A stretch of DNA of 58,992 bases from an uncultured Thermotogae bacterium (GTDB taxonomy: Bacteria > Bipolaricaulota > Bipolaricaulia > RBG-16-55-9): NCBI GenBank assembly GCA_964567595.1, contig CAZMNF010000007.1:1-58992 (forward strand), given 5' to 3'. The notes beneath the pieces were generated by a model. It worked only from the letters and a program-made list of their open reading frames with translations. It was not told the origin of the DNA and did not search any database. Positions 1,023-16,726 of the stretch are shown one piece after another (positions within the stretch are counted from its first letter, which is position 1; each line of letters starts with the position of its first letter). A program made the translations under genes and the position numbers.

Positions 1023-1637
1023 TCACGCGGCTCCGGCCGAATGCTCGGCATCGGCCCAAGCGATCCCGGCCTCGAAGGCGGCGACGTTCAGGTCGACGGT
1101 GTTCGGGGGGACGAGCTCGCGAAGCGCCTGGCGCCACGAGGCCAGTCCCACGTCGAGCTGGGTCGACAGCGCGCCGAGCGTCACCGTATTGGCCAGTTTC
1201 GGGTTCCCCAGTCGGTCAGCGTGATCCAAGCCCGGCACCATCCAGACGCGATCGGTGTGATAACGGAGAATCCCGGCCACGTTGTCCGGATAGGCGGCCG
1301 CTTTGAGCGATTCCAACGGCGGCGCCACCCGCTGGTCGTTGACGACGACGATCCCGCCTTCCGCCACATACGTCAGATAACGGAGGGATTCCAACCGTTC
1401 AAAAGCGAGCAGGACGTCGGCCTCGCCCTGGGGGATCATGGGCGAGAGGACCTCGCCATGGCCGTAGCGCACCGTGCTGAAGACGGATCCGCCGCGTTGC
1501 GACATCCCGTGGACTTCCGACGTGGCGACCTCGCGGCCGTCGATCTCGGCGGCTCGGGCGACGATCCGCCCAGCCAGCACCGAGCCTTGGCCGCCGACCC
1601 CGGCAAGCGCGATGTCCACCGTCTCGATGCGGCTCAT
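1023..1637 (-). CDS. iorB: Indolepyruvate:ferredoxin oxidoreductase beta subunit
   Basis: AGVGGQG and SEVHGMSQRGGSV motifs; ATGA overlap with the upstream iorA. Confidence 0.93.
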   Translation of the reverse strand: MSRIETVDIALAGVGGQGSVLAGRIVARAAEIDGREVATSEVHGMSQRGGSVFSTVRYGHGEVLSPMIPQGEADVLLAFERLESLRYLTYVAEGGIVVVNDQRVAPPLESLKAAAYPDNVAGILRYHTDRVWMVPGLDHADRLGNPKLANTVTLGALSTQLDVGLASWRQALRELVPPNTVDLNVAAFEAGIAWADAEHSAGAA

Positions 1638-4627
1638 GAGGACCTCCGTCGATTGAGGAAGCGGACGACGCTGTCGGCGACGCGGCGACCGGTGGCGATT
1701 CCCTGGGTTACGGTGCCGTGGCCGAACGCCGCGTCCCCACAGGCAAACACGTTCGGATCGACCGTCGCGCCCGTGAAGTCGATCGCAATACGACTGCCGT
1801 CCCGCGCGTGGCCGTGCGCCAGCAACGACAGATCAGGCCGCTCGCCGACGGCCAGGACCACCGAGTCGGCGTTCATGTCGGTCGTTGCGCCCTCGATCGG
1901 CTCGGGGCGTTGGCGGCCATCCTCGTCGGGCTCGCCCAATCGCATCCGTTGAAGTTGGAGCCCGGTGACTTGCCCATCGAGACTCCGCAGGCGCTGCGGG
2001 GCCACCAGGAACTCGAACGCCACGCCCTCCGCACGGGCCTCGGCGACCTCGTCAGGAATCGCGGGCATTTCGGCCTCGGTCCGTCGATAGCAGACGGTCA
2101 CCTCGGCGCCGAGCCGACGGGCCGTGCGGGCGCAGTCGATCGCCGTGTTGCCGCCGCCGATGACAACCACGCGCGGGCCGAGCTCCAGTGCCTCGCCGCC
2201 GTTGGAGCGCCGCAACAGCTCGAGGCCGTCCCAGAAGCCGCGGATGGACGGCCCCCTCCCCTCCAGTTGGATCTCGCGCGGCTGATCCAGGCCCACGCCG
2301 AGCACGACGGCGTCGAATTCGGCCTTGAGGTTGTCGAACGAGCGGTCCCGGCCGATGCGGATGCCACACTGAATCTCGACCCCGATCGCCTTGAGCCGGT
2401 CGATCTCGCCATCAAGGACGGCTTTGTCCAAGCGGAAGTCGGGGATGCCCTCGCGCATCATGCCGCCAGGTTCGCCGGATGACTCGAAGACCGTCACGCC
2501 GATGCCGGTCCGTCGGAGGTGCCAGGCGGCCGAGAGCCCGGCCGGACCGGAGCCGACGATCGCGACGTGCTCGGGACGGTCCGTCTGCGGCGCGAATTCA
2601 GCCCCCGTGTAGTCCGCCAACCCGACGTCGCCCACATGCCGTTCCACGGCCTGGACCGAAAGCCGTTGGCTGTCGGTGGTCAAAGGGAACGCGCGGACGA
2701 GCTCGGGGAACCGCTCGGCGCGCTGCGAGCCCTGCGGCCAGCCGAGCGCGTTCGTCTCGTGCTCACACGGGTGCGGGCAGACGCGGCCCGAGACGGCAGG
2801 GAACGGGTTGACGTCCAGGATCGTTTCCAACGCCCTGGCGTCCTGGCCCTCGCTGACGAGCTCAAGCACGCGCGGAATATCGGCTCCAGCGTTGCAGTCG
2901 GAACAGACTTGCTGGCAGTGCGTGCAGGCGATGCACAGCATCCCGTCGACCTGGAGGGTCCCGTTCTCGTCGATGCTGATACCGGGGCAGCCGACGGTCG
3001 TGCAGGCGTGGCAGTCGGCACACCTCGCGCGATCGATCCGGACGGGCTCGTCGAACTGCGTCCGTTCCAGCAGGACGCAGGGGGCCTCCGCGACAATCAC
3101 CGAGAGCGTGTCGCGGCTCAACGCGTCGTTCAGCGCATCCCGTGTGGCGTCGAGGTCGTAGGGATCAACGCGGGCGACGTGCTCGATGCCGAGTCCCCGA
3201 CAGAGCTCTTCCAGGTCGACGACACGAGTCGGCTCACCACGGACGTCCTTGCCCACGCCCGGATGGCCCTGATGGCCGGTCATGGCCGTTGTGTGGTTGT
3301 CCATGACGACGACGGTGCTCATGCCGCCGTTGTAGAGCACGTCGACCAGTCCCGGGATGCCGGAGTGATAGAACGTGGAGTCGCCGATGACCGCCACTAA
3401 GTTCTCGCGCTCGGCTTGGCCCATGACCTTGGCCATGCCGTGAGCCATCCCGATGGAGGCCCCCATGTTCATGCAGGTGTCCATCGCGCCCAACGGCGGC
3501 AGCGCGCCCAAGGTGTAACACCCGATGTCGCCCGTCACCGTGGCGCCGAGTTCGCTGAGCACAGTGAAGACGCCGCGATGGCCGCAGCCGGGACAGAGCG
3601 CGGGCGGGCGCGGCGGCAGCGGCGGGACGCTGGTCTGAGTCCCTTGACCATCTGCCCCATCCAGGGCCGCTCGGAGCGCGTCCACGGACAGTTCGCCCGT
3701 GCGCGGCAGGCGATCCTTGCCGATGACGTCAATGCCGAGCGCGCGGACCTGCTCCTCCAAAAACGGTTCCAGTTCCTCGGCCACCAGGATCGTTGAGCGA
3801 CCCTCGGCGAAGTCCGTGACAACTCGGCGCGGCAGCGGATGGGTCAGGCCGAGTTTCAGGACGGCCGCGTCGGGGAACGCCTCGCGGGCATAGGGGAACG
3901 CCGACCCGGCTGTGATGATGGCGAGGTCGCCGCTGCCCTCGAATATCTCGGCCCAGCGCTCGGCCTCGGCTTCCAATTGAGGCATTCGGTCCGTCTCGAT
4001 CCAGCTGTGGCGAATCCGCCCGTGGGCCGGCAGCACGACGTACTTCTGGGGCCGCTTGCGATACGGCTTGCGATCCACGCCGTGTCGCTCGTCCAGTTCG
4101 ACGGGGCCGGTACCGTGGGAAATCCGCGTCGTGGTGCGCAGCATGACGGGCGTGTCGTGGCGCTCGGACAGCTCAAAAGCCCGTCCTGCAAAGGCTTTGG
4201 CCTCCCACGGTGTGGCAGGCTCCAACAGGGGGAGCCGAGCGGCGCGGGCCAACAGCCGATTGTCCTGTTCGTTCTGCGAGGAGTGCATGCCGGGATCGTC
4301 GGCGGAAACGATGACCAGGCCGCCGTTGACGCCCATGTAGGAGGCTGAAAAAAGCGGATCGGCCGCGACGTTGACCCCGACGTGCTTCATGGCCGCCAGG
4401 GCCCGTCCGCCGGCGACGGAGGCGCCGACGGCTACCTCCAGCGCGACCTTCTCGTTGGTGGACCACTCGCAGTTGACGCCGTCGAAATGCGCCAGATTTT
4501 CCAAAATCTCCGTGCTCGGCGTCCCGGGATAGGCCGCCGCCACGTGGACGCCGCCCTCCCAGACGCCGCGCGCGACCGCGGCGTTGCCCGACATCAGCCT
4601 ATCGGCCGTCTTGGCGATTGGAGCCAT
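1634..4627 (-). CDS. iorA: IorA alpha subunit fused to a C-terminal GltD-like FAD/NADP(H) oxidoreductase
   Basis: aa 1-575: YPGTPSTEI, NEKVALE, DDPGMHSSQNEQD, CPGCGHR, GDIGCY, TPP motif GDSTF..N and a ferredoxin domain. Remainder: NPFPAVSGRVCPHPCE, GSGPAG, GGGNTA, YRR, GD..G.TV. Confidence 0.92.
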   Translation of the reverse strand: MAPIAKTADRLMSGNAAVARGVWEGGVHVAAAYPGTPSTEILENLAHFDGVNCEWSTNEKVALEVAVGASVAGGRALAAMKHVGVNVAADPLFSASYMGVNGGLVIVSADDPGMHSSQNEQDNRLLARAARLPLLEPATPWEAKAFAGRAFELSERHDTPVMLRTTTRISHGTGPVELDERHGVDRKPYRKRPQKYVVLPAHGRIRHSWIETDRMPQLEAEAERWAEIFEGSGDLAIITAGSAFPYAREAFPDAAVLKLGLTHPLPRRVVTDFAEGRSTILVAEELEPFLEEQVRALGIDVIGKDRLPRTGELSVDALRAALDGADGQGTQTSVPPLPPRPPALCPGCGHRGVFTVLSELGATVTGDIGCYTLGALPPLGAMDTCMNMGASIGMAHGMAKVMGQAERENLVAVIGDSTFYHSGIPGLVDVLYNGGMSTVVVMDNHTTAMTGHQGHPGVGKDVRGEPTRVVDLEELCRGLGIEHVARVDPYDLDATRDALNDALSRDTLSVIVAEAPCVLLERTQFDEPVRIDRARCADCHACTTVGCPGISIDENGTLQVDGMLCIACTHCQQVCSDCNAGADIPRVLELVSEGQDARALETILDVNPFPAVSGRVCPHPCEHETNALGWPQGSQRAERFPELVRAFPLTTDSQRLSVQAVERHVGDVGLADYTGAEFAPQTDRPEHVAIVGSGPAGLSAAWHLRRTGIGVTVFESSGEPGGMMREGIPDFRLDKAVLDGEIDRLKAIGVEIQCGIRIGRDRSFDNLKAEFDAVVLGVGLDQPREIQLEGRGPSIRGFWDGLELLRRSNGGEALELGPRVVVIGGGNTAIDCARTARRLGAEVTVCYRRTEAEMPAIPDEVAEARAEGVAFEFLVAPQRLRSLDGQVTGLQLQRMRLGEPDEDGRQRPEPIEGATTDMNADSVVLAVGERPDLSLLAHGHARDGSRIAIDFTGATVDPNVFACGDAAFGHGTVTQGIATGRRVADSVVRFLNRRRSS

Positions 4628-4756
4628 GATGTCCTCCTCAAGGGATAGAACCCTACCTCCATGATCGACGGGCGACCATGACGACGATCAACATGGCCTT
4701 ACCTGTTGTATCTCAGGTTTGGCGTTGATATTCATCATTCGTCCGGGGCACATTGG

Positions 4757-4765
4757 TGATAGAAT
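4757..4765 (+). promoter_or_regulatory. Extended -10 element (TGaTAGAAT) for gdh
   Basis: TGnTAGAAT about 70 nt upstream of the gdh ATG, in the divergent iorA/gdh intergenic region. An ACCTG-N8-CAGGT inverted repeat lies at 4701-4718. Confidence 0.45.
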
Positions 4766-4835
4766 GGCCCACGGGCAGAGCCGTTAGGCTCCGTCGAAGC
4801 ACAGCGGCACATCGTTCGATCTCAAGGAGGGCGGC

Positions 4836-6104
4836 ATGAAGGACCTGCAGCGACAGACGGAGATCAGCATGCTGGAGACGGCCCGCCATTTCTTTGACAG
4901 GGCGGCGGATCACATTCACCTCGAGGACGCGCTCCGCGAGCTGTTGCGGTACCCCAAGCGGAAGCTGACTGTCAACTTCCCCGTGCGCATGGACGACGGC
5001 GACACGCAACACATCGAAGCCTATCGCATCCAGCACCATCAGGTGCTCGGCCCGACGAAGGGCGGCATCCGCTATCACCCCGACGTCACCCACGAGGAGG
5101 TTGAGGCGCTGGCGGTGCTCATGGCCTGGAAGTGTGCCGTGATGCACCTGCCCTTCGGCGGCGCCAAAGGCGGCGTCCGCTGCCATCCCAAGGACATGAG
5201 CGAGGGCGAGCTGGAGCGCATGACGCGACGCTTTGCGGCCGAGATCGCCCCCATCATCGGCCCCGACGTGGACATCCCCGCACCGGACGTCTACACGGGC
5301 CAACGCGAGATGGCCTGGATCGTGGATACGCTCAGCATGCACAACAACGCCCAGTTCATGCCCGGCTCGATCACGGGCAAACCGCTCATCCTGGGCGGCT
5401 CCAAGGGCCGCAGCACCGCCACCGGGCGCGGCGGCTTCTTCGTGGCGCTGCAGCTGTTGAAGGAACTCGGCCTCGAGCCGTCCGATGCCACCGTGGCCGT
5501 CAACGGCTTCGGCAATGCCGGCACGGTCTTTGCGACCAACTTCCACGAGCTCGGCGCCAAGGTGATCGCGGTCAGTGACTCCAGCGGCGGGATCTACAAC
5601 GCGGACGGGCTCGACATGCCCCACGTCCAAAAGCACAAGGACCAAACCGGCTCGGTTCAAGATTTCCCCGGGGCCGATTCCATATCCAACGACGAGCTGC
5701 TCGAGCTGGAGTGCGACGTGCTGGCGCCCGCCGCGCTGGAGAACGTGCTCCACCGCGACAACGCGGACAACATCCAGGCAAAATCCGTCATTGAGCTGGC
5801 CAACGGCCCAACGACGCTGGAGGCCGACGAGATCCTTTACGACAACGGCGTCGCCGTCGTGCCCGACATCCTGGCCAACGCGGGCGGCGTGACGGTCAGC
5901 TACTTCGAGTGGGTCCAAGATCGGCAGTTCTACTTCTGGAGCGCCGAGGACGTGGACACCAAGTTGAAGGAGTTCATGGATCACGCGTTCCAGCAGGTCT
6001 GGCAAACCCACCAGAAGGACGGCATCAACATGCGCACGGCGGCCTACGTGGTCGCCGTCGACCGCGTAGCGGAGGCGGCACGAGCCCGCGGCCTCTACGC
6101 CTAG
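4836..6104 (+). CDS. gdhA: Glu/Leu/Phe/Val dehydrogenase (glutamate dehydrogenase)
   Basis: GPTKGGIRY, LPFGGAKGG, DIPAPD, GFGNAG, ANGP and PDILANAGGVTVSYFEW motifs; AAGGAGG RBS. Confidence 0.95.
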   Translation: MKDLQRQTEISMLETARHFFDRAADHIHLEDALRELLRYPKRKLTVNFPVRMDDGDTQHIEAYRIQHHQVLGPTKGGIRYHPDVTHEEVEALAVLMAWKCAVMHLPFGGAKGGVRCHPKDMSEGELERMTRRFAAEIAPIIGPDVDIPAPDVYTGQREMAWIVDTLSMHNNAQFMPGSITGKPLILGGSKGRSTATGRGGFFVALQLLKELGLEPSDATVAVNGFGNAGTVFATNFHELGAKVIAVSDSSGGIYNADGLDMPHVQKHKDQTGSVQDFPGADSISNDELLELECDVLAPAALENVLHRDNADNIQAKSVIELANGPTTLEADEILYDNGVAVVPDILANAGGVTVSYFEWVQDRQFYFWSAEDVDTKLKEFMDHAFQQVWQTHQKDGINMRTAAYVVAVDRVAEAARARGLYA

Positions 6105-6110
6105 CGCATC

Positions 6111-6194
6111 GATGGGCGACCCCGATCGCCCATCCGAAAACCCCTCCTTTGGATGCGGAGAGCCGGCGCCCGAGCGTCCCGGGCGCCGGCTCTC
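6111..6194. terminator. Two strong hairpins between convergent gdh and OFOR-beta genes
   Basis: GATGGGCGA/TCGCCCATC 9-bp stem (6111-6134) and a perfect 15-bp stem GAGAGCCGGCGCCCG/CGGGCGCCGGCTCTC (6158-6194). No clear U-tract. Confidence 0.6.
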
Positions 6195-6244
6195 GGCGTG
6201 TCGCCGATGGCTCGATCGGAGATTGACTCGGCTGGATCGTCGCG

Positions 6245-7165
6245 TCACTGGGGGCGGCCAGCGTCGCGGGTCAGCCGGTCCCAGCGCTTGTCGACCTCGG
6301 CCTGGATCTGTTCCAGGGCCTCGTCGCTGAGATCGCGGAAACGGCCCTGGGCACGGAAGTAAGCCCCGACCGGCAGTCCCCTCGGTTCCACGTTGATGGT
6401 CACGTGCTCGCCGTGGGTCATCTCGTAGAGCGGGAAGACCTTCGTGTCCACGGCCAATCGGGCGACGTCGATGGACGCCTCGGCGTCGATCTTCCAGCCC
6501 GGCGGACACGGCGAGAACAGATGGATGAACGTCGTCCCGCTGGTCCCCTGCGCCCTCTGGAACTTCTCGACGAGGTCATCGGGATACGCCACGCTCGCCG
6601 TGGCGATGTAGGGAACCTCGTGAGCGGCCAGAATGCGAACGATGTCCTTCTTGGGCCGAGCTTTCAGGCCGCCCTTGGGCGTCGTCGTCGTCCAGGCGCC
6701 TTCGGGCGTGGCGCCGCTGCGCTGGATGCCGGTGTTCATGTAGGCTTCGTTGTCGTAGCAGACGTAGAGGATATCTTCGTTGCGTTCCGCGGCGCCCGAG
6801 AGAGCTTGCAGGCCGATGTCGAACGTGCCGCCGTCGCCGGCCCAGGCCATGACGGTCACGTCGTCTTGGCCCTGCATCGCCAGCGAGGCGCGTAGGCCCG
6901 ACGCCGTGGCTGCGGCCGTCTCGAACGCCGTGTGGAACAGCGGGACGTCGACGGTGGATGTCGGGTACGGCCCAGCGATGATGGACCAACAGCACGCCGG
7001 CACCACGACCATCGTCCGCTCGCCGAGGGCCTTCAGCGCCAGCCGCATGGCGAGACTCGCTCCACATCCCGGACACGCCAGGTGCCCAGGGTGCATGTGC
7101 TCGCGCGCGGGAATCTGGAAGTTCGTCGTCCGTCCGTTTGTGGTCAGCTGTTTGGATGGGGTCAT
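6245..7165 (-). CDS. 2-oxoacid:ferredoxin oxidoreductase beta subunit (PorB/VorB-like)
   Basis: GHLACPGCG, TPP motif GDGG..DIG..YDNEAYMNTG, SPCPPGW. Confidence 0.92.
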   Translation of the reverse strand: MTPSKQLTTNGRTTNFQIPAREHMHPGHLACPGCGASLAMRLALKALGERTMVVVPACCWSIIAGPYPTSTVDVPLFHTAFETAAATASGLRASLAMQGQDDVTVMAWAGDGGTFDIGLQALSGAAERNEDILYVCYDNEAYMNTGIQRSGATPEGAWTTTTPKGGLKARPKKDIVRILAAHEVPYIATASVAYPDDLVEKFQRAQGTSGTTFIHLFSPCPPGWKIDAEASIDVARLAVDTKVFPLYEMTHGEHVTINVEPRGLPVGAYFRAQGRFRDLSDEALEQIQAEVDKRWDRLTRDAGRPQ

Positions 7166-8355
7166 CGCGACCTCCCGTTCGTGGCCGTGGCCACGGCTTC
7201 GGCCTGCTTGAGGCCGATCCAGTAGGGTTCCTCCGACGGGCGATCGCTCGTTTGGGCCGTGTCGACGACCTCGTGGATCGTGTCCGGCGTGATGTCGCGT
7301 CCGCCGAGTCCCGCCACAAAGCCGAAGACCGTCGGTGCGTCGGGTTGGCCGTAAAGCGCGCTCTTCAGCTCGGCGTGGAAGATCCCGTGGTGGCCGAACG
7401 ACAGGTTGCGATCGAGGACGGCCACCTTGGGGGTGCCGAGCAGCGCCTCTCGGACCGCTTCAAAGGGGAACGGCCGGAACACGCGGAGTTTCAACAGGCC
7501 GACCTTCTCGCCGTGGGCGCGGCGCTCGTCGATGACCTCGCGGGCCGTGCTGGTGATCGTCGAGGCCGTGACCACGACGACGTCGGCGTCGGCCGTGCGG
7601 TAGGCTTCAACCTGCCCGTAGAAGCGCCCGAAGCGCTCGCCGTAGTCGCGGCCGACCTCGTCGATGGCGTCCTTGGCTTCCACGAAGCCCTGCTGGATCT
7701 TGTGCCGGAACTCGAAATATCCATCGGGCGTGACGAGCGAGCCGAAGGCGTGCGGGTCCTCGACGTCCATCTTGACGGTCGGCTCGTACGGCGGCAGAAA
7801 GGCGTCGACCTCGGCTTGATCGGGGATCTCGACGGGCTCGGACGTGTGCGAGAGGAAGAACGCGTCCAGCACGATCATCGTGGGCAACTTCACCTGCTCC
7901 GCGATCTTGAACGCTTGGAGGGTCGTGTCGAGCACCTCCTGGTTGGACTCACAGTAGATTTGCAGCCACCCCGTGTCGCGCTGGGCGAGGCTGTCGGTCT
8001 GCTCGCTCCAGATCGACCAGGCCGGGGCCATCGCTCGATTGACCTCGGCCATGACGATCGGGAGCCGCGCGCCCGCTGCCCAGTGGAGCACCTCGTGCAT
8101 CAACGCCAATCCTTGGGACGAGGTGGCGGTAAACGCCCGCGATCCGCCCGCGGAGGCGCCGATGCAGCTGGCCATTGCCGAGTGCTCCGATTCGACCTTG
8201 ACGAACTCCGCATCCAGATCGCCCTTGGCGCAGAGCTCCGCCAGTTCCTCGACGATCCCCGTCTGGGGCGTGATCGGGTACGCCGCGATCACGTCGACGC
8301 GCGCCAGTTGGGCGCCGATTGAGGCGGCATGGTTGCCCATCATTACGCGCTTCAT
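7162..8355 (-). CDS. 2-oxoacid:ferredoxin oxidoreductase alpha subunit (PorA/VorA-like)
   Basis: AYPITPQT, ESEHSA, TATSSQGL, GLGGRD motifs. Start at 8355 overlaps the upstream stop (ATGA), with GAAGG RBS. Confidence 0.92.
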   Translation of the reverse strand: MKRVMMGNHAASIGAQLARVDVIAAYPITPQTGIVEELAELCAKGDLDAEFVKVESEHSAMASCIGASAGGSRAFTATSSQGLALMHEVLHWAAGARLPIVMAEVNRAMAPAWSIWSEQTDSLAQRDTGWLQIYCESNQEVLDTTLQAFKIAEQVKLPTMIVLDAFFLSHTSEPVEIPDQAEVDAFLPPYEPTVKMDVEDPHAFGSLVTPDGYFEFRHKIQQGFVEAKDAIDEVGRDYGERFGRFYGQVEAYRTADADVVVVTASTITSTAREVIDERRAHGEKVGLLKLRVFRPFPFEAVREALLGTPKVAVLDRNLSFGHHGIFHAELKSALYGQPDAPTVFGFVAGLGGRDITPDTIHEVVDTAQTSDRPSEEPYWIGLKQAEAVATATNGRSR

Positions 8356-10112
8356 GCTTGCGACACCGCCTTCTCTTCCAGTTCCAGCTCGATCGCCCCG
8401 CGCGGGCATTCGTAAGCGCAGATCCCGCAGCCCTTACAGTAGTCCGTGTCGATGCGATAGGGCTGGGCGGGATCGTCGGTCCTCAGCACGGCCAGGTCGG
8501 GGCAGAACACGAAGCAGTTGTCGCATTCGGTACACGTCCCGCAGTTGAAGCAGCGCTGGGCTTCGCGTTGGGCGAACGAGTCGATGAAGCCGAGCTCGAC
8601 CTCCTCGAAGTCGTCAACGAGGTCGTGGTGGCCGTTTCGCTTGGTGGTTGGGGTTCGCTGCTTATGGGGGAAATAGTTCGGGTTGACCTCGTCGTACTCC
8701 ACGACGCGCTCCGGATCGACACCGGCGTCGTGTCCCTGAACGTAGCGACGCATCGACAGGCCGTCCGCGCGCCCCAGACGGGCTTCCGCGCGAATGGCGC
8801 TCGGGTTGACGCCGTCGACCATCCGGTCGATGGCCATGGCGGCCCGCTTGCCGCTGGCGATCGCGTCGACGACGGTGTGCGGCTGGTCCACGATGTCGCC
8901 GCCGGCCCAGACGTTCGCGTCATGCGTTCGGCCGACGTCGTCGACCGTGATCACGGTCCCCTTCCTCTCCAATGCCTCCGGCATAAATGAGAAGTCTGGC
9001 TGTTCGCCGATGGCGGTGATGACGGTATCGACATTCCGAGTGATCGTCTCGCCCTCGATCGGGATGGGGCGTCGGCGCCCGCTCTCGTCGGGCTCGCCGA
9101 GCCGCATGCGGACGAGGCCGATCGATTCGACCCTTTCGTCCCCGTGGATCTCGACGGGGTTGAGCAGCTCGTGGATCTCGACGTCCTCCTCGAGCGCCTC
9201 CTCGATCTCGTCGGCGATGGCCGGCATCTCCTCTCGGGAGCGCCGATAGAAGACGTCGACGGCAGCCCCCAGACGTCGAGCCGATCGAGCAACGTCCATG
9301 GCCGTGTTGCCGCCGCCGATGACCGCCACGCGTTTTCCAACGTCGATCGTGCCGCCGGTGTTGAGCGTCCGCAGGAATTCAAGTCCGTCGTGGACGCCCT
9401 GAAGATCGTCACCGGGCACGTTCAACTGCCGGGTTCGCCCCAAGCCCGTCGCGACAAACGCCGCGTCATAGCTTTGTAGGTCCGCCCATTGGAGGTCCTC
9501 GCCCAGGCGCGTTCCCGTCACGAGCCGGGCGCCGAGGTCGAGCACGCGCTCGATCTCGCCCTCGAGAATGTCCTTCGGGAGGCGGTAGTTGGGAATGCCG
9601 TAGCGCAGAACACCGCCGGGTTCCGTGTCCGCCTCATAGATCGTCACGCCGTGGCCGAGCCGCGCCAGGTGATAGGCACAGGCCAATCCCGCGGGACCGG
9701 CCCCGATCACGGCAATGGAGGTGGACTGGAACTCGCGCAGCTTGGGAACGCGCTTGGCTTCCCGAAGCGCGTGGTCGCCGAGGAAGCGCTCCACGGAGTG
9801 GATCCCGAGCGCGTCGTCAAATTTGCTGCGGTTGCAGACGTCCTCGCAGGGATGATGACAGACGCGGCCCGTGATCGCGGGGAAGGGGTTCTCCCAGATG
9901 AGCGCTTCCCAAGCGCGATCCAGATCGCCGTCGGCCAAGCACTTCATGGCCGACTGGATATCGTTGACGTTGGGGCATCCCGCGCGGCAGGCCGCCGTGG
10001 CGTCGCGGTAGATCGGGCGCAAAAAGCGCCACGACCCAGTCTTATTGCCGCGCGTGTTGCCCGTTGACATGGGCATTAACGGCGTGCCGTTCGAGCGGTT
10101 CGTATCGCTCAT
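8352..10112 (-). CDS. PorD-like delta subunit with an inserted GltD-like flavoprotein (DsrL-like architecture)
   Basis: N-terminal NKTGSWRFLRP (delta-type), CxxxCP..NPFPAITGRVC..CE..C, GAGPAG, GGGNTA, YRR, then EAQRCFNC and a C-terminal 2[4Fe-4S] domain ending IDTDYCKGCGICAYECP. Confidence 0.88.
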   Translation of the reverse strand: MSDTNRSNGTPLMPMSTGNTRGNKTGSWRFLRPIYRDATAACRAGCPNVNDIQSAMKCLADGDLDRAWEALIWENPFPAITGRVCHHPCEDVCNRSKFDDALGIHSVERFLGDHALREAKRVPKLREFQSTSIAVIGAGPAGLACAYHLARLGHGVTIYEADTEPGGVLRYGIPNYRLPKDILEGEIERVLDLGARLVTGTRLGEDLQWADLQSYDAAFVATGLGRTRQLNVPGDDLQGVHDGLEFLRTLNTGGTIDVGKRVAVIGGGNTAMDVARSARRLGAAVDVFYRRSREEMPAIADEIEEALEEDVEIHELLNPVEIHGDERVESIGLVRMRLGEPDESGRRRPIPIEGETITRNVDTVITAIGEQPDFSFMPEALERKGTVITVDDVGRTHDANVWAGGDIVDQPHTVVDAIASGKRAAMAIDRMVDGVNPSAIRAEARLGRADGLSMRRYVQGHDAGVDPERVVEYDEVNPNYFPHKQRTPTTKRNGHHDLVDDFEEVELGFIDSFAQREAQRCFNCGTCTECDNCFVFCPDLAVLRTDDPAQPYRIDTDYCKGCGICAYECPRGAIELELEEKAVSQA

Positions 10113-10699
10113 GATGAACTCCCCATTTCAATCCGCTGGCTGACAAGCTCTGGCCCGCGGACGGCCTCATGGGCGTCGCGAGCGGCTGCCTGATTCGCCT
10201 CCGTTCCCGACGGAACGGCGTCGTCGATGGCCCTCAGAATGGCGTCCAATCCGACGGCTCCGCTTGCCTTGGCATAGGCGCCAAGGATAGACGTGTTGAC
10301 GATCGGCTGTTGGCGGGTTCCGAGGCCGTGTTCGACGGCGATGCGGGCGGCATCGACCGTGGCGACGTGAAAGCGGCCCAAATGGGCAAAGGCCTCGGGA
10401 GGATGCTCGCTGTTGATGAGGATCAGCCCGTTGCGCTTGAGGCCCGAGGTGACCTCGACGGTCTCGATCAGCGTGGCGTCCAACACGACGAGATGATCGG
10501 GCTGATAAATTTGCGAGCGGATCTGAATGGGCTTGTCGTCGATCCGGGCGAACGCCATGACGGGGGCGCCGCGTCGCTCCACGCCGAACGCCGGGAACGC
10601 CTGCACCGATCGACCCTCGTCGAACGCGGCCGAGGTGAGCGCCTTGGAGGCGACGACCGCGCCCTGCCCGCCGCGTCCGTGGAACCGAACTTCGATCAT
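10109..10699 (-). CDS. 2-oxoacid:ferredoxin oxidoreductase gamma subunit
   Basis: EVRFHGRGGQG and FPAFGVERRGAPV motifs; GAGGAGG RBS. Confidence 0.93.
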   Translation of the reverse strand: MIEVRFHGRGGQGAVVASKALTSAAFDEGRSVQAFPAFGVERRGAPVMAFARIDDKPIQIRSQIYQPDHLVVLDATLIETVEVTSGLKRNGLILINSEHPPEAFAHLGRFHVATVDAARIAVEHGLGTRQQPIVNTSILGAYAKASGAVGLDAILRAIDDAVPSGTEANQAAARDAHEAVRGPELVSQRIEMGSSS

Positions 10700-10759: not shown

Positions 10760-11710
10760 CTACACTTCGAGGTAACGATCCTCGCACTTGGTTGCGATGC
10801 GGTCCCAATCCTCGTCAACTTGGTTCTGGAACGCCTTGATGTGGTCGCGGTTGCCCTCATCGAACAGGTGCTTGAAGCGCTTCTGCGGCTTGAGCCAAGC
10901 CTCGATCGGCTCGGGATCCTCGGGGGCATAGTTGAGCCAGTACTCGCCGTCGACGACCTCGTAGAGCGGCCAGAAGCGCGTCTCCACGGCCAGTCGGGCG
11001 ATCTCCGGCGTCTGGCTCGGGTCGAACCCCCAGCCGCGCTGGCAGGGCGCCAGGACGTTGAGGAAGCTCGGCCCGTCGACGCTCATGGCCTGCTCGACCT
11101 TTCGGAGGAGATCCTGCCAGTGCGACAGCGACGCCTGCGCCACGTAGGGGACGTGGTGCGCGATGGCGATGTCGGTGAGGTCCTTGCGGCGCTGGAGTTT
11201 GCCGAGGCTCTCGTCGCCGACGGGACTGGTGGTCGTGTTGGCGAAGGGGGGCGTGGCGCCGCTGCGCTGGTTCCCGGTGTTCATGTAGGCCTCGTTGTCG
11301 TAGCAGATGTAGGTGAAGCGATGGCCGCGCTCCAGCGCGCCCGACAGCGACTGCAGGCCAATGTCGTAAGTGCCCCCGTCGCCGCCGAAGGCCACGAAGC
11401 GCATGTCGTCGGGGAGATCCCCGCGGCCCTTGCGCTTGAGCACGCGATAGGCCGTCTCCACGCCGCTGGCGGCGGCTCCCGTGTTCTCGAACGCCACGTG
11501 CAGCCAGGGCACGTTCCAGGCACTCGTCGGGTAGCGCGTCGTGGCGACTTCCAGGCATCCCGTCGCGTTGATCACGGCCACCGGCTCGTCAATGGCGTTG
11601 AGCACGGTCCGCACGACGGGCGGAATGCCGCAACCGGCGCAGAGCGAGTGGCCACCTCGAAACCGCAGTTCCTGTTCCTCGTTCCGATTCAGCGTCTTCA
11701 GGGTTTTCAT
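10760..11710 (-). CDS. porB: Pyruvate:ferredoxin oxidoreductase-like beta subunit
   Basis: GHSLCAGCG, ATGCLEV, FEN, GGDGGTYDIG and DNEAYMNTG motifs. True start MKTLKT at 11710 with GAGG RBS; the ORF-track extension to 12910 is a shadow of porA. Confidence 0.88.
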   Translation of the reverse strand: MKTLKTLNRNEEQELRFRGGHSLCAGCGIPPVVRTVLNAIDEPVAVINATGCLEVATTRYPTSAWNVPWLHVAFENTGAAASGVETAYRVLKRKGRGDLPDDMRFVAFGGDGGTYDIGLQSLSGALERGHRFTYICYDNEAYMNTGNQRSGATPPFANTTTSPVGDESLGKLQRRKDLTDIAIAHHVPYVAQASLSHWQDLLRKVEQAMSVDGPSFLNVLAPCQRGWGFDPSQTPEIARLAVETRFWPLYEVVDGEYWLNYAPEDPEPIEAWLKPQKRFKHLFDEGNRDHIKAFQNQVDEDWDRIATKCEDRYLEV

Positions 11711-12900
11711 CGCTGCCTCACTCCCAGGTAATGCATGGTGCGCGGAAGGTCCGGATCCTGGATCGCCCGCAGCGCGGACTCCAGTTGCGCCGGCGTGACG
11801 TCGCGACCGCCCAGCCCGTAAGTGAAGTTGTGCAGGGCCGGCATCTCGCTTCCTTCGGACGCCAAGGCCGCCGCGATCTCCGCATAAAGCGGCCCGGAGC
11901 TGCCGAACGACAGCGCCCGGTCCAGCACCGCCACGGCCTTGGCGCCGCTCAGCGCGTCGACGACCGCCTTCTGCGGGAACGGGCGGAACAGCCACGGCTT
12001 CAACAGCCCGACCTTCTGGCCCCGCTCGCGGAGTCGGTCGACGACAGTCTTGGCCGTGCCGGCCGTGGAGCCGAGCGCCACCAGGACGTGGTCGGCGTCC
12101 TCCAAGCCGTAGCCCTCGTAGTAGCCGCGATACGACCGCCCGGTGGCGTCCTCGTAGGCCTCTTGGACGTCGAGGAAGATGTCGAGGCCTTGACGGAGGG
12201 CAATGTCCTGCTGGACCTTGTGCTCGTAGTAGTAGTCCGGCATGTCGAACGGGCCCTGCGACGACGGGTTTGTCGTGTCCAGCAGTGGATAGTGCGGGCG
12301 ATATTGGCCCACAAACGACCGGGCCGTCTCGTCGTCGAGGATGCTGGCGGCCTCGGCGGAGTGCGTCAGCGTGAAGCCGTCGAGGTTGACCAGGACGGGC
12401 AACAGAATGTGCTCGTTCTCGGCCAGCCGCGTGGCCATCAGCGTGTAGTCGTAGGCTTCCTGGACGTTTTCCGCAAACACTTGGAGCACGCCCGAGTCCC
12501 GAGCGAGCATGGCGTCGGAGTGATCGGCGTGGATGTTGATCGGCCCCGACAGGGCCCGATTGCCGATCGGCATGACGATGGGACAGCGCATCGAGGCCGC
12601 GAGGTAGACGACCTCGATCATCAGGGCGAGCCCCTGGGAGGCCGTCGCCGTCATGACCCGAGCGCCTGCTGTGGAGGCGCCGACCGCGGCGCTCATCGCG
12701 GAGTGCTCGGACTCCACGTTGATGATCTCGGTGTCGCTCAGGCCGTCGGCCACCATCTGGCTGAACGTCTCGATGATGGGCGTCTGGGGCGTGATGGGAT
12801 AGACGGGGACGACGTCGGGCTCGATCTGGCGCATCGCGTTGGCGACACCCTGGGCGCCCGTCAACAGTTCGGCTCGGTTGAGATCGATCGCGACGCTCAT
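11707..12900 (-). CDS. porA: Pyruvate:ferredoxin oxidoreductase-like alpha subunit
   Basis: YPITPQT, ESEHSAMS, NRALSGPINIHADHSD and YGLGGRD motifs. Confidence 0.9.
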   Translation of the reverse strand: MSVAIDLNRAELLTGAQGVANAMRQIEPDVVPVYPITPQTPIIETFSQMVADGLSDTEIINVESEHSAMSAAVGASTAGARVMTATASQGLALMIEVVYLAASMRCPIVMPIGNRALSGPINIHADHSDAMLARDSGVLQVFAENVQEAYDYTLMATRLAENEHILLPVLVNLDGFTLTHSAEAASILDDETARSFVGQYRPHYPLLDTTNPSSQGPFDMPDYYYEHKVQQDIALRQGLDIFLDVQEAYEDATGRSYRGYYEGYGLEDADHVLVALGSTAGTAKTVVDRLRERGQKVGLLKPWLFRPFPQKAVVDALSGAKAVAVLDRALSFGSSGPLYAEIAAALASEGSEMPALHNFTYGLGGRDVTPAQLESALRAIQDPDLPRTMHYLGVRQR

Positions 12901-13802
12901 GACGCTGCACTCCCTTCCGGAACCATGGAGATCGCGCCGGACGGGCAGACCGCCTCGCAGATCCCGCAGCCTTTGCAGAATTTCAGGTCAAACCCCGTCA
13001 TCAGCCGGCCTTCGGTGATGATGGCCGGCTCGGGGCAGTGGACCCAGCAGAGCAGACAGTTGACGCAGGTCGCCTCGTCGAAGACGGGCTTCTCGTTGCG
13101 CCAGCCGCCCGTCTCGCGGCGCTCGCGGTTGGCGTCGGTCACGACCGCGCCGGGCAAGAGATCCTGATACGGCGGCAACTCGTCCTCGGGGGCGCCGTTC
13201 TCCGAGGCCCCCACCGCGAGGGACCCGCTCTCGTCGGCCGCGAGCGTCTCGACTCGGTCAGCCCCTTGGCGGAGCGCGTCGAGGTTCTTGTTGATGACCT
13301 CATCGCCCAGCTTGGCTCCGAGGAACTGGCGCAGCGCGCCCTCCATGGCCTCGCCGGTCAGGATGTCGATCTGGCCCGCCACCGCACCGAGCGTCGGGAC
13401 GTTGGCGAAGCCGCAGCCCGTCTCTTCGGCTGTCGTTTCCGCGTCGAGCGTGATGATCTCGCCCGGGTATCCCGTCAGCTCGCGGACCTCGCTCGGGGGC
13501 TTCATCGTGTTCAGGATCAGTTTCCCCTCGGGCTTCAGACCGCCCGTAACGTCCTCGGCATCGAGCAATGTTTCATCGATGACGACGGCGATGTCGGGCT
13601 CGTAGACGCCGGAGTGCACCACGATTTGATCGTCATCCAGACGATTGAACGCCTTGACGGGGGCGCCGCCGCGCTCCGGCCCGTACTCGGGGAACGCCTG
13701 CGCGAACTTGCCGCAGTGGAGCGCCCCCATCGCCAGGATCTTCGACACCGTGATCGCGCCCTGACCGCCGCGTCCGTGCCAGCGAATCTCAAGCATCGTC
13801 AT
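12897..13802 (-). CDS. Fused OFOR gamma-delta subunit (PorC-PorD)
   Basis: EIRWHGRGGQG/FPEYGPERGGAP gamma domain, acidic linker, then delta domain TGGWRNEKP with CVNCLLCWVHCP and CKGCGICEAVCP; AAGGAG RBS before 13802. Confidence 0.9.
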   Translation of the reverse strand: MTMLEIRWHGRGGQGAITVSKILAMGALHCGKFAQAFPEYGPERGGAPVKAFNRLDDDQIVVHSGVYEPDIAVVIDETLLDAEDVTGGLKPEGKLILNTMKPPSEVRELTGYPGEIITLDAETTAEETGCGFANVPTLGAVAGQIDILTGEAMEGALRQFLGAKLGDEVINKNLDALRQGADRVETLAADESGSLAVGASENGAPEDELPPYQDLLPGAVVTDANRERRETGGWRNEKPVFDEATCVNCLLCWVHCPEPAIITEGRLMTGFDLKFCKGCGICEAVCPSGAISMVPEGSAAS

Positions 13803-15147
13803 CCACTCCTTCGGCGCCGGTCGGCTCAATCCGTTCGTCGATCGCCCGAGCGGCCGTCTTCCCGTGGGCGATCGCCTCCACGACCGTCGCGCCGCCGTTG
13901 GTGCAGTCGCCGCCGGCGAAGACCCGCGGGTTGCTCGTGCGGCAGTTCCCATCGACGGCCACCAGGTCGTTGGTCAGCTCCAGCCCCTTGATCCGAGCGA
14001 AAAAGTCGCACCGCTTCTGTTGGCCGAGCGCCAAGACGACCGTGTCGGCGGGAACCGTGAAGTCCGTCCCGTCCACCTTGACGGGCTTGGGCCGTCCGCC
14101 TTCTGGGCGGGACTCCAGCCGGGTGTAGACGCACTCGATCCCCTCGACGCGCATGTCCCCATAGATGCGCTCGGGCGCGACCAGCCACTGGAAGTGGACG
14201 CCCTCTTGGCGCGCGGCTTCGACTTCGTGGCCGAACGCCGGCATTTCGTTGATGGTGCGCCGATAGAGCACGGTCACGTTGCGCGCGCCCATGCGGATCG
14301 CCTCGCGGGCGACGTCGATGGCTGTGTTGCCGCCACCGAGAACGACCACGTCGTCGCCGATCTCGGGCGGCGTGCCCAGCTTCAACTCCTCGATAAACTC
14401 GAGCGAGCGCCAGACGCCCTCCATCTGCGATCCCTCAATGGGCGGCTCCACGTCGCCGGCCAGGCCGGTGCCGAGGAAGAGCGCGTCGTGGGCGTGCTCC
14501 AGCTCCGACAGCGGCACCTCCTCACCCACGCCGACGCCCCAGCGGATCGTCACCCCGAGCCGTTCGATCAGTTCGGTCTCCTGGAGCAACGGCTCGATCT
14601 GTTGCTTGTAGGGGGCGATCGCCGTTGGGACGAGCCCGCCGGGCATCTCGCGCCGTTCGTAGATTGTCGGGTCATGACCCAATTGGGCCAGTTCGGCCGC
14701 GCACGCGAGACCCGCGGGACCCGCACCCACGACGCCGATGCTGAGCGGTGTCGACGATGGGGACGTCAGCGGGTGCGCGAACGATCCGGACTCGAGCGCA
14801 TGGTCGGTTGCGTAACGCTGGAGCCGGCCGATCTCCACGGCCCGTCGGCCCTCGTCCAACAGCACGCACGCCCCTTCGCACAGCTGCTCGACGGGACAGA
14901 CGCGCGCGCAGGTGCCGCCGAGGACGTTGCGGGCGAAGATCGTCTCCGCCGCGTCCGTCGGCTGGCCGAGGCGAATCTCGCGGATGAACTTGGGCACGTC
15001 GATGTCCGTCGGGCAGGCCTCGGCGCAGGGGGCCGGACGCCCGTCGCGGCCGCACTCCAGACAGCGACTGGCCTCCAGCACGGCTCGGTCGTCGTCCAGG
15101 GGCGGATGGAGCTCCTCGAAGACTGCCGTTGCTGTTTCGGTTCCCAT
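13789..15147 (-). CDS. Stand-alone GltD/SudA/PreT-like NAD(P)-dependent Fe-S flavoprotein
   Basis: EASRCLEC..PCAEACP, CARVCP..LCEGAC, GAGPAG, GGGNTA, YRR, GGDC..G..TVV.A motifs. Start 15147 or 15156. Confidence 0.9.
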   Translation of the reverse strand: MGTETATAVFEELHPPLDDDRAVLEASRCLECGRDGRPAPCAEACPTDIDVPKFIREIRLGQPTDAAETIFARNVLGGTCARVCPVEQLCEGACVLLDEGRRAVEIGRLQRYATDHALESGSFAHPLTSPSSTPLSIGVVGAGPAGLACAAELAQLGHDPTIYERREMPGGLVPTAIAPYKQQIEPLLQETELIERLGVTIRWGVGVGEEVPLSELEHAHDALFLGTGLAGDVEPPIEGSQMEGVWRSLEFIEELKLGTPPEIGDDVVVLGGGNTAIDVAREAIRMGARNVTVLYRRTINEMPAFGHEVEAARQEGVHFQWLVAPERIYGDMRVEGIECVYTRLESRPEGGRPKPVKVDGTDFTVPADTVVLALGQQKRCDFFARIKGLELTNDLVAVDGNCRTSNPRVFAGGDCTNGGATVVEAIAHGKTAARAIDERIEPTGAEGVDDDA

Positions 15148-15478
15148 GGTCCGCATCCTTCCTTCCGTCTCTTAATTCCAGGTCTTATTATCCTGTTATG
15201 GGCCGACCGACACCATGATCCGGGTCAGGACCGCCGCCCGGCTCGCCCGGCGATCGGGCAGCCCGTGCCCGCGGTGACCGCTAGCGGTCACCGGCGTTGG
15301 CCTCCATGATAGGTAGCGCCTGTAGAGGGATCTGTGAGATCGTTTGCGTCGCACCGTTGGGTTTGTCACACAACAAGGCCGAATCGTCCCTAACAATGCG
15401 GTAAACTGCGCCATGTCATAGCGGAGCCCGCAAGTTCGGGCCATACTGGAGCCCCGAACGGCGCGAGAGGAGGACGCG

Positions 15479-16726
15479 ATGGAGACGACTTGGACCGATC
15501 GCTACGCACAGCGAACGCAGCACATGGGCGGCTCCGCCATTCGCGAACTGCTCAAACTGACGGCCCAACCGGATGTGATCTCCTTCGCCGGCGGCTTGCC
15601 GGCGCCGGAGGTGTTCCCGGTGGAGGCGTTCAACGAGGCCTCACAGCGGGTTCTGCGCGAGCACGGCTCCACGGCGCTGCAGTACAGCACCACGGAAGGC
15701 TATCCCCCGTTGCGCGAGCTGATCGCGGAGATGATGAGCGAGGACGGATTCAACGTCGATCCCGACCAAATCCTGATCACGCATGGGTCGCAGCAAGCGC
15801 TCGACCTGTTCGGCAAGATTTTCATCAACCCGGGCGACCACGTGGCGGTGGAGCGGCCGACGTTCTTGGGCGCGCTCCAAGCGTGGAAGGCCTATCAAGC
15901 CGAGTACTTGACGGTTCCGGTCGACGACGAGGGCATGAAGGTCGACCAACTCGAGGAAGTCCTGCGGCACGGCCCGAAGTTCCTCTACACCATGCCGACG
16001 TTCCACAACCCGGCCGGCGTGACGCTCTCGCCCCAGCGACGCGAGATCCTGCTGGAGCTGGCCGATCAATACGGCGTGCCGGTGGTGGAGGATGATCCCT
16101 ACAGCAAGCTCCGCTATTCGGGCGAGCCCCAGAGCCCGCTTGTGGCCCTGGACGGACGCCGCTACGCGACATCCGACGAGGGCAACGTGCTCTATCTCGG
16201 CACGTTCTCCAAGACGCTCTCGCCCGGACTGAGGCTGGGCTGGGCGCTGGCGCCCAAGGACGTCGTCCGCCGCATGGTCCAAGCCAAGCAGGGCACCGAT
16301 CTGCACACGAGCACGTTCTCCCAGATGGTGGCGTACGAGGTCGCCCGCGACGGCTTCATCGACGAGCATGCCGAGCGGATCCGCTCCGTGTACCGCGAGC
16401 GCCGCGACGCGATGCTGAGCGCCATCGCGGCGAACTTTCCCGAGGGCGTGGCGTGGACGCACCCTGAAGGGGGGCTGTTCCTCTGGGTCACGCTGCCCGA
16501 GCGGATCGACGCGGCGGAACTGCTTGAGACGGCGGTGGAGACGGAGAAGATCGCCTTCGTGCCCGGTCACACGCTCGATCCCGCGGAACAGATTCGCAAC
16601 ACGATGCGGCTCAACTTCTCCTACGCCGACGTCGAGTTGATCGAGGACGGCATGGAGCGCCTCGGTCGTGTGCTGAACCGCGCGTTGGCCGAGAAGGCAC
16701 CGAGCGCGGCCCAAGCCTCCGACTGA
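15479..16726 (+). CDS. PLP-dependent class I aminotransferase (LysN/ARO8 aromatic/2-aminoadipate type)
   Basis: SAIRELLK, ISFAGGLP, PTFHNPAG, EDDPY, TFSKTLSPGLRLGW and RLNFS motifs; GAGGAGG RBS. Confidence 0.92.
   Translation: METTWTDRYAQRTQHMGGSAIRELLKLTAQPDVISFAGGLPAPEVFPVEAFNEASQRVLREHGSTALQYSTTEGYPPLRELIAEMMSEDGFNVDPDQILITHGSQQALDLFGKIFINPGDHVAVERPTFLGALQAWKAYQAEYLTVPVDDEGMKVDQLEEVLRHGPKFLYTMPTFHNPAGVTLSPQRREILLELADQYGVPVVEDDPYSKLRYSGEPQSPLVALDGRRYATSDEGNVLYLGTFSKTLSPGLRLGWALAPKDVVRRMVQAKQGTDLHTSTFSQMVAYEVARDGFIDEHAERIRSVYRERRDAMLSAIAANFPEGVAWTHPEGGLFLWVTLPERIDAAELLETAVETEKIAFVPGHTLDPAEQIRNTMRLNFSYADVELIEDGMERLGRVLNRALAEKAPSAAQASD

Follow-up and report, generated by a model that had tools for sequence, protein, structure and literature searches.

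2-Oxoacid:ferredoxin oxidoreductases (OFORs) are textbook ferredoxin- or flavodoxin-dependent enzymes. Phenylglyoxylate:NAD+ oxidoreductase (PadEFGHI) consists of an OFOR core and an extra flavoprotein subunit that permits the reduction of pyridine nucleotides. The pyruvate:NADP+ oxidoreductase (PNO) of Euglena and Cryptosporidium joins a pyruvate:ferredoxin oxidoreductase (PFOR) in one polypeptide to an NADPH flavoprotein of the cytochrome-P450-reductase type (FMN/FAD), and it works independently of ferredoxin. The PFOR-flavodoxin-FqrB system of Helicobacter and Campylobacter is composed of three separate proteins, with a diffusible carrier. An NADPH site of another kind was described in the Stn complex, where residues 102-565 of StnC are a GltD-like site inserted in a NuoG-like Fe-S protein (PMC10482914, passages on StnC). 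According to the same passages, the Stn GltD-like domain has lost bifurcation and transfers single electrons along [4Fe-4S] clusters, and the overall reaction is reversible. In this study, 58,992 nucleotides of contig CAZMNF010000007.1 (assembly GCA_964567595.1) from an uncultured Thermotogae bacterium assigned to Bipolaricaulota, called the window hereafter, were analysed. Twelve genes at positions 1023-16726 encode an indolepyruvate oxidoreductase (IOR), a set resembling 2-oxoisovalerate and pyruvate oxidoreductases (VOR/POR-like, set 1), a POR-like set (set 2), a glutamate dehydrogenase (GDH) and an aminotransferase, and each of the three OFORs is accompanied by its own GltD-like flavoprotein module. 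Judged from sequence, the three OFORs would be ferredoxin-independent 2-oxoacid:NADP+ oxidoreductases, a reading to which a rough probability of 0.58 is given.

Gene content and oxidoreductase cores

All of the genes of the initial annotation, including its combination of aminotransferase, GDH and IOR/VOR/POR, were confirmed at their positions. Its claim that every set has a GltD-like module of its own, in three builds (fused to IorA, inserted into delta and free-standing), was borne out by Pfam matches and alignments. The features are listed below.

1023-1637, minus strand: IorB, 204 aa, indolepyruvate oxidoreductase beta/gamma-type (Pfam POR, E 4.5e-38); 4-nt overlap with the IorA stop
1634-4627, minus strand: IorA::GltD-like fusion, 997 aa (TIGR03336 IOR_alpha; Pyr_redox_2 and Fer4_20 at residues 565-975)
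2897-4627, minus strand: catalytic part of IorA, residues 1-577, with thiamine pyrophosphate (TPP) domains, proximal [4Fe-4S] and 2x[4Fe-4S] ferredoxin domain
1634-2896, minus strand: GltD-like FAD/NADP(H) module of IorA, residues 578-997 (Fer4_20, partial; Pyr_redox_2)
4836-6104, plus strand: GDH, 422 aa (Pfam ELFV_dehydrog, E 7e-83; GdhA_Arch 531 bits, under the cut-off of 750)
6245-7165, minus strand: set 1 beta, VOR-type, with TPP and proximal cluster (NF008818, 412.6 bits, over the cut-off of 405)
7162-8409, minus strand: set 1 alpha (POR_N, E 2e-76; PFOR_II; PorA_Arch 491.9 bits and VOR alpha 458.7 bits, both under cut-off)
8352-10112, minus strand: GltD::delta, 586 aa (NF009410, 557 bits, over the cut-off of 516)
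10005-10055, minus strand: N-terminal delta arm of GltD::delta, residues 20-36, K-T-G-S-W-R-F-L-R-P
8535-10004, minus strand: permuted GltD-like NADP(H)/FAD cassette within delta, residues 37-526
8352-8534, minus strand: 2x[4Fe-4S] ferredoxin domain of delta, residues 527-586 (PorD_Arch and TIGR02179 at 519-580)
10109-10699, minus strand: set 1 gamma (TIGR02175, 201.2 bits, over the cut-off of 81.1)
10760-11710, minus strand: set 2 beta, POR-type (PorB NF008819, 368.2 bits, under the cut-off of 405)
11707-12900, minus strand: set 2 alpha (PorA_Arch, 486.8 bits, under the cut-off of 550)
12897-13802, minus strand: set 2 gamma-delta fusion (TIGR02175, 169 bits, and TIGR02179, 88.5 bits, each over cut-off)
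13789-15156, minus strand: free GltD-like FAD/NADP(H) Fe-S flavoprotein, 455 aa (Fer4_20, E 1e-32; Pyr_redox_2)
15479-16726, plus strand: class I/II aminotransferase, Thermococcales multiple-substrate / 2-aminoadipate type (Pfam Aminotran_1_2)

Most of the gene junctions overlap, by at least 4 nt. The free GltD-like gene, the gamma-delta fusion, alpha2, beta2, gamma1, GltD::delta, alpha1 and beta1 form a co-directional run from 15156 to 6245 on the minus strand. GDH is divergent from iorA and convergent with beta1, and the aminotransferase gene is divergent from the free GltD-like gene.

The alpha (POR_N/PFOR_II), gamma (POR) and delta (2x[4Fe-4S]) parts were all found for each enzyme, and the TPP domain PF02775 is present in beta1, beta2 and IorA. 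IorA was matched by TIGR03336 over residues 10-576 with 670.3 bits, above the equivalog cut-off of 650.9, and its C345, C348, C370, C517 and G415-D416-S417 do not vary across 65 sequences. The best NCBIfam models for IorB are those of IOR beta (195.8 bits, under the cut-off of 237). Both beta1 and beta2 have GDG at residue 110, with cysteines at 31, 34, 58/59 and 220 in the former and at 24, 27, 52 and 223 in the latter. Set 2 is nearest to the POR models, yet the PorA and PorB cut-offs were not reached. Set 1 has no delta domain other than the C-terminal part of the GltD fusion, and this inevitably ties the flavoprotein to the electron exit. In set 2, a TGGWR..KP arm precedes the Cys motifs of gamma-delta, as in GltD::delta. 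The gamma and delta parts of set 2 share one frame, which probably starts at M51 or M53 of the long open reading frame (ORF); the stop between them is missing in just 2/14 loci of relatives (L038 and L039, both Bipolaricaulia).

The solved relatives of the aminotransferase are 1x0m and 3aov (P. horikoshii PH0207), 1wst and 2egy, with E values of 1e-105 to 1e-120. The nearest are PH0207 and the multiple-substrate aminotransferase of T. profundus (E 1e-117 to 1e-120), so that the initial label 'aromatic-type' is reasonable, with a specificity predicted from relatives only.

Motifs, cluster ligands and wiring of the GltD-like modules

The modules carry the FAD-binding GxGxxG, the second Rossmann motif GGGNTA and, where the beta strand of this motif ends, YRR, by which a GltD-like flavoprotein is recognised. 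GGGNTA is located at residue 824 of the IorA fusion, 266 of GltD::delta and 274 of the free form, and YRR at residues 847, 289 and 298, respectively, which agrees with the initial annotation of both motifs in all three modules. The two motifs are invariant in 96/96 full-length IorA fusions, found among 120 listed matches, and in 120/120 delta-inserted homologues. YRR had also been taken as an NADP marker, and it does separate the aligned columns of E. coli GltD (NADPH, YRR) from those of E. coli PreT, the 'dihydropyrimidine dehydrogenase (NAD(+))', which has ARE. The NADPH-binding NfnI-L and NfnB have YRR as well, and so do 7/7 GltD-like genes of the genome. With few references behind it, the motif supports NADP(H) as the predicted nucleotide.

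In the IorA fusion, the eight cysteines of the ferredoxin domain (536-575) together with C578, C617 and C621 are invariant in 96/96 sequences. Position 622 is Asp in 64, Glu in 27 and Gln in 3 of the 96. Position 625, the seventh GltD Cys site, is Cys in 0/96, and the GltD N-domain is without its first CxxC. Therefore, the fusion holds the ligands for one GltD cluster only, of the Cys3 + Glu/Asp type. The second cluster of the IorA ferredoxin domain presumably stands in for the lost GltD cluster. In the AlphaFold2 (AF2) model, the junction is ordered, with a predicted local distance difference test score (pLDDT) of 81-95 over residues 520-680 and a predicted template modelling score (pTM) of 0.76.

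The second module had been described as inserted into delta, and the order of the parts agrees with this: the N-arm motif K-T-G-S/T-W..P (residues 24-33) stands before the cassette and the 2x[4Fe-4S] motifs (residues 527-569) behind it. The same order, namely N-arm, five Cys and E90, flavoprotein, ordered linker, E517/R520/C521/C524 and eight delta Cys, was found in 120/120 sequences. T25, G26, W28 and P33 of the arm, the eight Cys of the delta domain, and C42, C46, C85, C89, C93, C521 and C524 of the cassette are invariant in 120/120, and E90 is conserved in 119/120. C521 and C524 are part of the cassette end element 'F.EV...EA.RC..C', two residues ahead of the first delta Cys motif. A hidden Markov model (HMM) of the first 24 residues of free GltD-like proteins ('F.E....A..EA.RC..C') matched 117/120 delta-inserted members at residues ~500-535 with a best independent E-value of 4e-6, and shuffled controls gave 24 scattered matches, the best at 0.11. 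Because this N-terminal model matches behind the flavoprotein, the cassette is circularly permuted and its first CxxC is joined to the delta ferredoxin domain. AF2 modelled GltD::delta as one confident body (pLDDT 90.4, pTM 0.90), and residues 19-580 were matched to positions 27-566 of the NF009410 profile.

The cassette was aligned with chain 9n5u_A of T. sibiricus NfnABC over residues 24-533 (E 2e-114), including the 'EAQRC..CG-C' after the flavoprotein, an element that 9bov_A and StnC also have in this trailing position. Structural comparison (VIA) gave a Z score of 42.8 for 9bov_A, with a root-mean-square deviation of 1.8 Å over 467 residues. The Z scores were 40.9 for 9n5v_A, 40.7 for 8oh5_C (StnC), 34.5 for NfnI-L, 33.1 for GltD and ~30 for dihydropyrimidine dehydrogenase (DPD).

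In the free form, C32, C35, C44, C48, C87, C93 and C97, which are the full canonical ligands, are invariant in 75 sequences. The two-cluster ligand set (seven Cys plus Glu/Gln) is complete in the free form, is completed in the delta-inserted form only via the permuted C521/C524, and is reduced to one cluster in the IorA-fused form. The module and the electron-exit subunit form one polypeptide in two of the three enzymes, and the cluster ligands that link both parts are invariant.

NfnB and NfnI-L, which have a bifurcating FAD, share 38-44% identity with the modules. The OFORs could accordingly be viewed as flavin-based bifurcating or confurcating enzymes of the Nfn type, with two acceptors of different potential, and the genome does contain another GltD fusion of the Stn/NfnABC kind (NuoE + NuoF::GltD + Fdh-alpha, contig C17). 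However, no second high-potential branch of the NfnA or HydBC type lies in or beside the four OFOR loci of the genome, and the closest relatives of the cassette are StnC-type domains, which were reported as non-bifurcating plain NADPH ports (PMC10482914, passages on this domain). Bifurcation by the OFOR modules is very unlikely.

Conservation, phylogeny and genomic setting

The draft genome (2.13 Mb, 103 contigs, 88% complete) has exactly four POR_N matches and seven GltD-like genes, the latter on contigs C1, C7, C17 and C32. At all four OFOR loci, a GltD-like gene is either fused to the OFOR or its immediate neighbour; therefore, the arrangement is not chance. The fourth OFOR, on contig C1 at 94028-98463, is composed of a 629-aa GltD-like::2x[4Fe-4S] fusion, alpha, Kor-like beta and gamma. 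It belongs to the 2-oxoacid:acceptor / Kor-like type, and its alpha subunit was matched by NF006412 with 511 bits against a cut-off of 411. The fusion has an N-terminal extension of ~70 aa, where the Pfam domain HTH_11 is found in some homologues.

GltB (PF01645) was not found in the genome, the best match being 19.4 bits under a cut-off of 20.4, and 14/14 control genomes were positive. No NfnA-type gene was found beside any GltD-like gene; the sole PF10418 match (NfnA/PyrK-type Fe-S domain) is on contig C25. Because the draft is only 88% complete, these absences mean 'not found'. A true GltD, the small subunit of glutamate synthase (GOGAT), was rejected for want of GltB and an NfnAB pair for want of an adjacent NfnA, so that either role is unlikely for the modules. 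The automatic names of homologues ('glutamate synthase small chain', 'PreT') are probably misleading.

The complete 12-gene cluster is kept in a genome of the same genus with 82-97% identity. The order gamma-GltD::delta-alpha-beta is held in 11/12 loci chosen by the fusion gene, and in three genomes of another family it is directly followed by IorA::GltD-IorB. NF009410 scored over its cut-off in 28/41 relatives and in 0/14 control genomes. Among the source names of homologues are KSB1 and Acidobacteriota, with Longimicrobiales and Gemmatimonadota among those of the IorA fusions and Rhodothermus among those of the free form; the fusion families are widespread and bear generic names only. In addition, many relatives (G012-G034, for example G029:C11:15591-17063) have ORFs of ~1130-1150 aa with a GltD cassette in the middle (NF009410 43-531, ~510-520 bits). 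To judge by this cassette, they would be another fusion architecture.

Phylogeny and synteny had been proposed as checks in the initial annotation. In the module tree, the three modules fall in three separate clades (100/100, 100/99 and 100/99) over a deep split (100/96), a clustering partly built in by sampling each group as the top matches of its query. A recent duplication of the three modules within the genome was rejected on account of these separate clades. Fused and free versions of the free-type module interleave within one clade with 100/99 support. As for synteny, the set 1 operon is kept as described above, and the association of set 2 with the free module is narrow.

That the free module belongs to set 2 is supported by the overlap of its stop with the gamma-delta start and by its fused relatives. 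Among its paralogues, the free GltD-like protein is nearest to the fourth OFOR's GltD::Fd fusion (55% identity), and a C-terminal 2x[4Fe-4S] domain is present in 25/120 of its closest homologues, the same fused forms that interleave with free ones in the tree. Another Bipolaricaulia lineage (L039) has the same adjacency, at just ~51-54% identity. The alternative is that the protein encoded at 13789-15156 is no subunit of set 2 and serves another partner, its position being a lineage-specific accident. Two further stand-alone GltD-like genes with different neighbours occur in the genome. The gamma-delta protein retrieved 44 set-2-type loci. Upstream sequence of at least 1.5 kb is available for 38 of them, and a GltD-like gene stands upstream in just 2/38 of these and downstream in one more. 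Another partner is still unlikely for the free protein, whose membership of set 2, as given in the initial annotation, is putative.

The initial annotation had also stressed that the organism has an O2 reductase. A caa3-type oxidase (COX2, COX1 and COX3, 38405-42856) is indeed encoded in the window, but the emphasis is not specific to the modules. NF009410 was over its cut-off in 20/28 relatives with COX1 and in 8/13 without (four cells 20, 8, 8 and 5), counts in which related genomes are not independent samples. A special link of the modules to O2 respiration was rejected since the delta-inserted form is also common without COX1.

The G+C content of the DNA in the window is 62-69%. Outside the cluster, the window holds bacterial genes, namely gyrA, TyrRS and ProRS of bacterial type, a BTAD-AAA-TPR regulator and the caa3-type oxidase, and the nearest protein relatives carry the source name 'Candidatus Bipolaricaulia bacterium'. 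On the aminotransferase side, the cluster is flanked by a DUF123 gene (16978-17421, minus strand) and by the gene of the 1022-aa BTAD-AAA-TPR regulator (17610-20678, plus strand). A perfect 22-bp palindrome, CGGTGACCGCTAGCGGTCACCG, lies at 15272-15293 between the free GltD-like gene and the aminotransferase gene and is a candidate operator. An operator common to both divergent promoter regions was not found, just one shared 10-mer. Between the convergent ends of GDH and beta1 (6105-6244), there are two G+C-rich, terminator-like hairpins at 6111-6134 and 6163-6189.

Two other GltD-like genes of the genome are associated with Nuo-type proteins. On contig C1 (98580-100205), a gene for a 541-aa GltD-like protein overlaps, by 4 nt at its end, the nuoA of a nuo operon (A, B, C, D, H, I ...) of the 11-gene type, which lacks nuoEFG. 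The Fe-S ligands of the protein are complete, YRR is present, and its NADPH domain contains a large insert. In 8/9 loci from several genera the two genes are adjacent, and a literature search on a GltD-like gene upstream of nuoA found nothing. The protein could be the module through which NADPH enters complex I. On contig C17 (19857-26121), a NuoE-like protein, a NuoF::GltD-like fusion (1032 aa, end 'EALRCLNC') and a formate dehydrogenase alpha subunit (TIGR01591, 871.7 bits) are encoded together. The locus looks like a Stn/NfnABC-like NAD(P)-linked formate dehydrogenase, and its NuoE and NuoF are the sole ones found in the draft genome. For the ADP-forming acyl-CoA synthetase (PF13549), only one candidate ORF, of 379 aa, was matched.

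Proposed function and comparison with known systems

The architectures, ligand sets, NADP-type motif, conservation and synteny were established above at the level of sequence, and the following function is proposed on this basis. The cluster would be an aminotransferase/GDH/OFOR route for the oxidation of amino acids. In the IOR, the VOR-like and the POR-like enzyme, TPP-dependent oxidative decarboxylation would send two electrons down the enzyme's own [4Fe-4S] chain. Where this chain ends, a dedicated GltD-like module would pass them through its GltD cluster or clusters to FAD and on to NADP+, which is reduced to NADPH. The net reaction would be 2-oxoacid + CoA + NADP+ -> acyl-CoA + CO2 + NADPH, without diffusible ferredoxin. 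The wiring may differ in each case. In IorA, the module follows the ferredoxin domain, one of whose clusters presumably replaces the lost GltD cluster. In set 1, the permuted Stn/NfnABC-type cassette lies within delta, its displaced CxxC adjoining the delta Cys motifs. In set 2, the free GltD-like protein, translationally coupled to the gamma-delta gene, presumably docks on gamma-delta.

The potential of the acyl-CoA + CO2 / 2-oxoacid couple is ~ -500 mV and that of NADP+ is -320 mV. Therefore, the oxidative direction is favoured. The inference that electrons flow this way, that NADP+ is the physiological acceptor and that ferredoxin is not needed draws on these established potentials and on the catabolic company of the genes, and the binding of the free subunit is likewise deduced. 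For the same reason, the reverse function is extremely unlikely, in which NADPH-driven 2-oxoacid synthases would supply GDH and the aminotransferase with substrates for making amino acids without GOGAT: a coupling site would be required for NADPH at -320 mV to drive a reductive carboxylation at ~ -500 mV, and no such site is encoded. Methanogens nevertheless have anabolic IOR and VOR, and since no GltB was found, GDH may be an assimilatory route.

Several points weigh against ferredoxin-independent reduction of NADP+. The IorA fusion is without one canonical GltD cluster, and its replacement by an IorA ferredoxin cluster is a suggestion only. The YRR rule was checked on two named E. coli references and on solved relatives of the NADPH type only. 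The nearest relatives of the free module, NfnB and NfnI-L, have a bifurcating FAD, and the module is rarely found beside set-2-type loci. Small ferredoxin-like ORFs are encoded in the genome, so that ferredoxin could still be served and a mixed or valve role is possible. Ferredoxin would then stay the main acceptor, and the module would be a built-in ferredoxin:NADP+ oxidoreductase or valve that shares the OFOR clusters and balances the two pools either way. In this regard, the distal cluster is the site of ferredoxin binding in NfnB and NfnI-L (PMC8097209, in its part on Nfn), the solved proteins nearest to the free module, and the GltD-like AadN of R. palustris was proposed as a ferredoxin reducer standing in for KorAB (PMC9973337, passages on AadN). 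The relatives that have the delta-inserted form and in which COX1 was not found may also be ferredoxin-based anaerobes. On the other hand, the displaced CxxC of set 1, two residues ahead of the delta motifs, points to a fixed internal path, and modules on all four OFORs are more than a balancing valve would need. A valve is unlikely as the main function, although no sequence feature tested here separates it from a 2-oxoacid:NADP+ oxidoreductase.

If the three OFORs are 2-oxoacid:NADP+ oxidoreductases, a wider scheme can be drawn. Four OFORs would reduce NADP+ via GltD cassettes, the 11-subunit complex I without NuoEFG would reoxidise NADPH with the help of its GltD-like subunit, and the caa3 oxidase would follow, so that NADPH would replace ferredoxin and NADH as the main carrier from amino-acid oxidation to O2. 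This NADPH-centred respiratory chain, in which one part would be used over and over, is tentative and, taken as a whole, rather unlikely.

The proposed function, if true, would give a role and an EC-type reaction to a large, widespread set of proteins, among them the members of NF009410 and ~100 clusters of IorA fusions. Those proteins are currently named 'NAD(P)-binding protein', 'FAD-dependent oxidoreductase' or 'glutamate synthase small subunit-like'. Correction would be needed in metabolic reconstructions that score such OFORs as ferredoxin reducers, or the modules as glutamate synthase. Besides, the role of the GltD cassette as a plug-in NADPH port would prove to be a general one, not confined to Stn/NfnABC. 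Enzymes of this kind might also find use in the ferredoxin-free coupling of 2-oxoacid chemistry to NADPH.

In a review of GltD-like modules, GltS, DPD, Nfn and AegA are treated and the word 'oxoacid' occurs 0 times (PMC8097209). A PFOR review of Nov 2026 states that the understanding of OFOR subunit make-up is far from complete and calls the extra subunit of five-subunit PFORs unexplained; 'glutamate synthase' has 0 occurrences in it and GltD-type modules are unmentioned under the terms searched (PMC13768988). In the Acetothermia genome paper, por and kor are treated as ferredoxin reducers, and 'NADPH' occurs 0 times. No paper coupling an OFOR to a GltD-, NfnB- or SudA-like module was found in the full-text literature, a scope outside which subscription journals and supplementary files lie. 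With regard to the question of whether the arrangement had already been characterised, the GltD cassette as an inserted NADPH port is known from Stn/NfnABC (PMC10482914, passages on StnC) and an NAD+-linked OFOR, PadEFGHI, is represented in NCBIfam, and the coupling of OFOR to GltD is unreported in the literature searched.

The locus shares separate features with each of the described systems. PadE, F, G and I models matched sets 1 and 2 at 115-314 bits, but PadH is from a different flavoprotein family than the GltD-like modules. The PadH family was rejected for GltD::delta, on which NF045765 gave 19.9 bits against a cut-off of 475; the best match in the genome (151.7 bits) lies elsewhere. Unlike PNO of Euglena and Cryptosporidium, the cluster has no Pfam domains of the cytochrome-P450-reductase type, as far as these were searched for in it. 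Unlike PFOR-flavodoxin-FqrB, the parts here are fused or operon-coupled. The free module resembles NfnB and NfnI-L in canonical ligands, GGGNTA and YRR, with an E value of 3e-81 to 5jca_L and 4ylf_B. In contrast to NfnAB and glutamate synthase, its neighbour is an OFOR gamma-delta gene, with no GltB found and no adjoining NfnA. GltD::delta is a full-length member of NF009410 (PRK12771, 'NAD(P)-binding protein'), a family whose generic name has no function attached.

The closest likeness is to Stn/NfnABC (Sporomusa ovata StnABC, 8oh5; 9bov, 9n5u/9n5v). The same permuted cassette with the trailing 'F.EV..EA.RC..C' is present at ~37-42% identity, and it is likewise inserted in an Fe-S host, where in Stn it serves as an NADPH port to the cluster chain. 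A bifurcating module of the HydBC/NuoEF type and a NuoG-like host were both looked for in the OFOR loci and neither was found. The host here is an OFOR delta subunit rather than a NuoG-like protein, and electron flow is expected toward NADP+. Therefore, the delta-inserted cassette is one of the Stn/NfnABC type that has the OFOR delta subunit as its new host. The component parts were known already; what is new here is the GltD-type NADPH port placed on OFORs in three or four ways.

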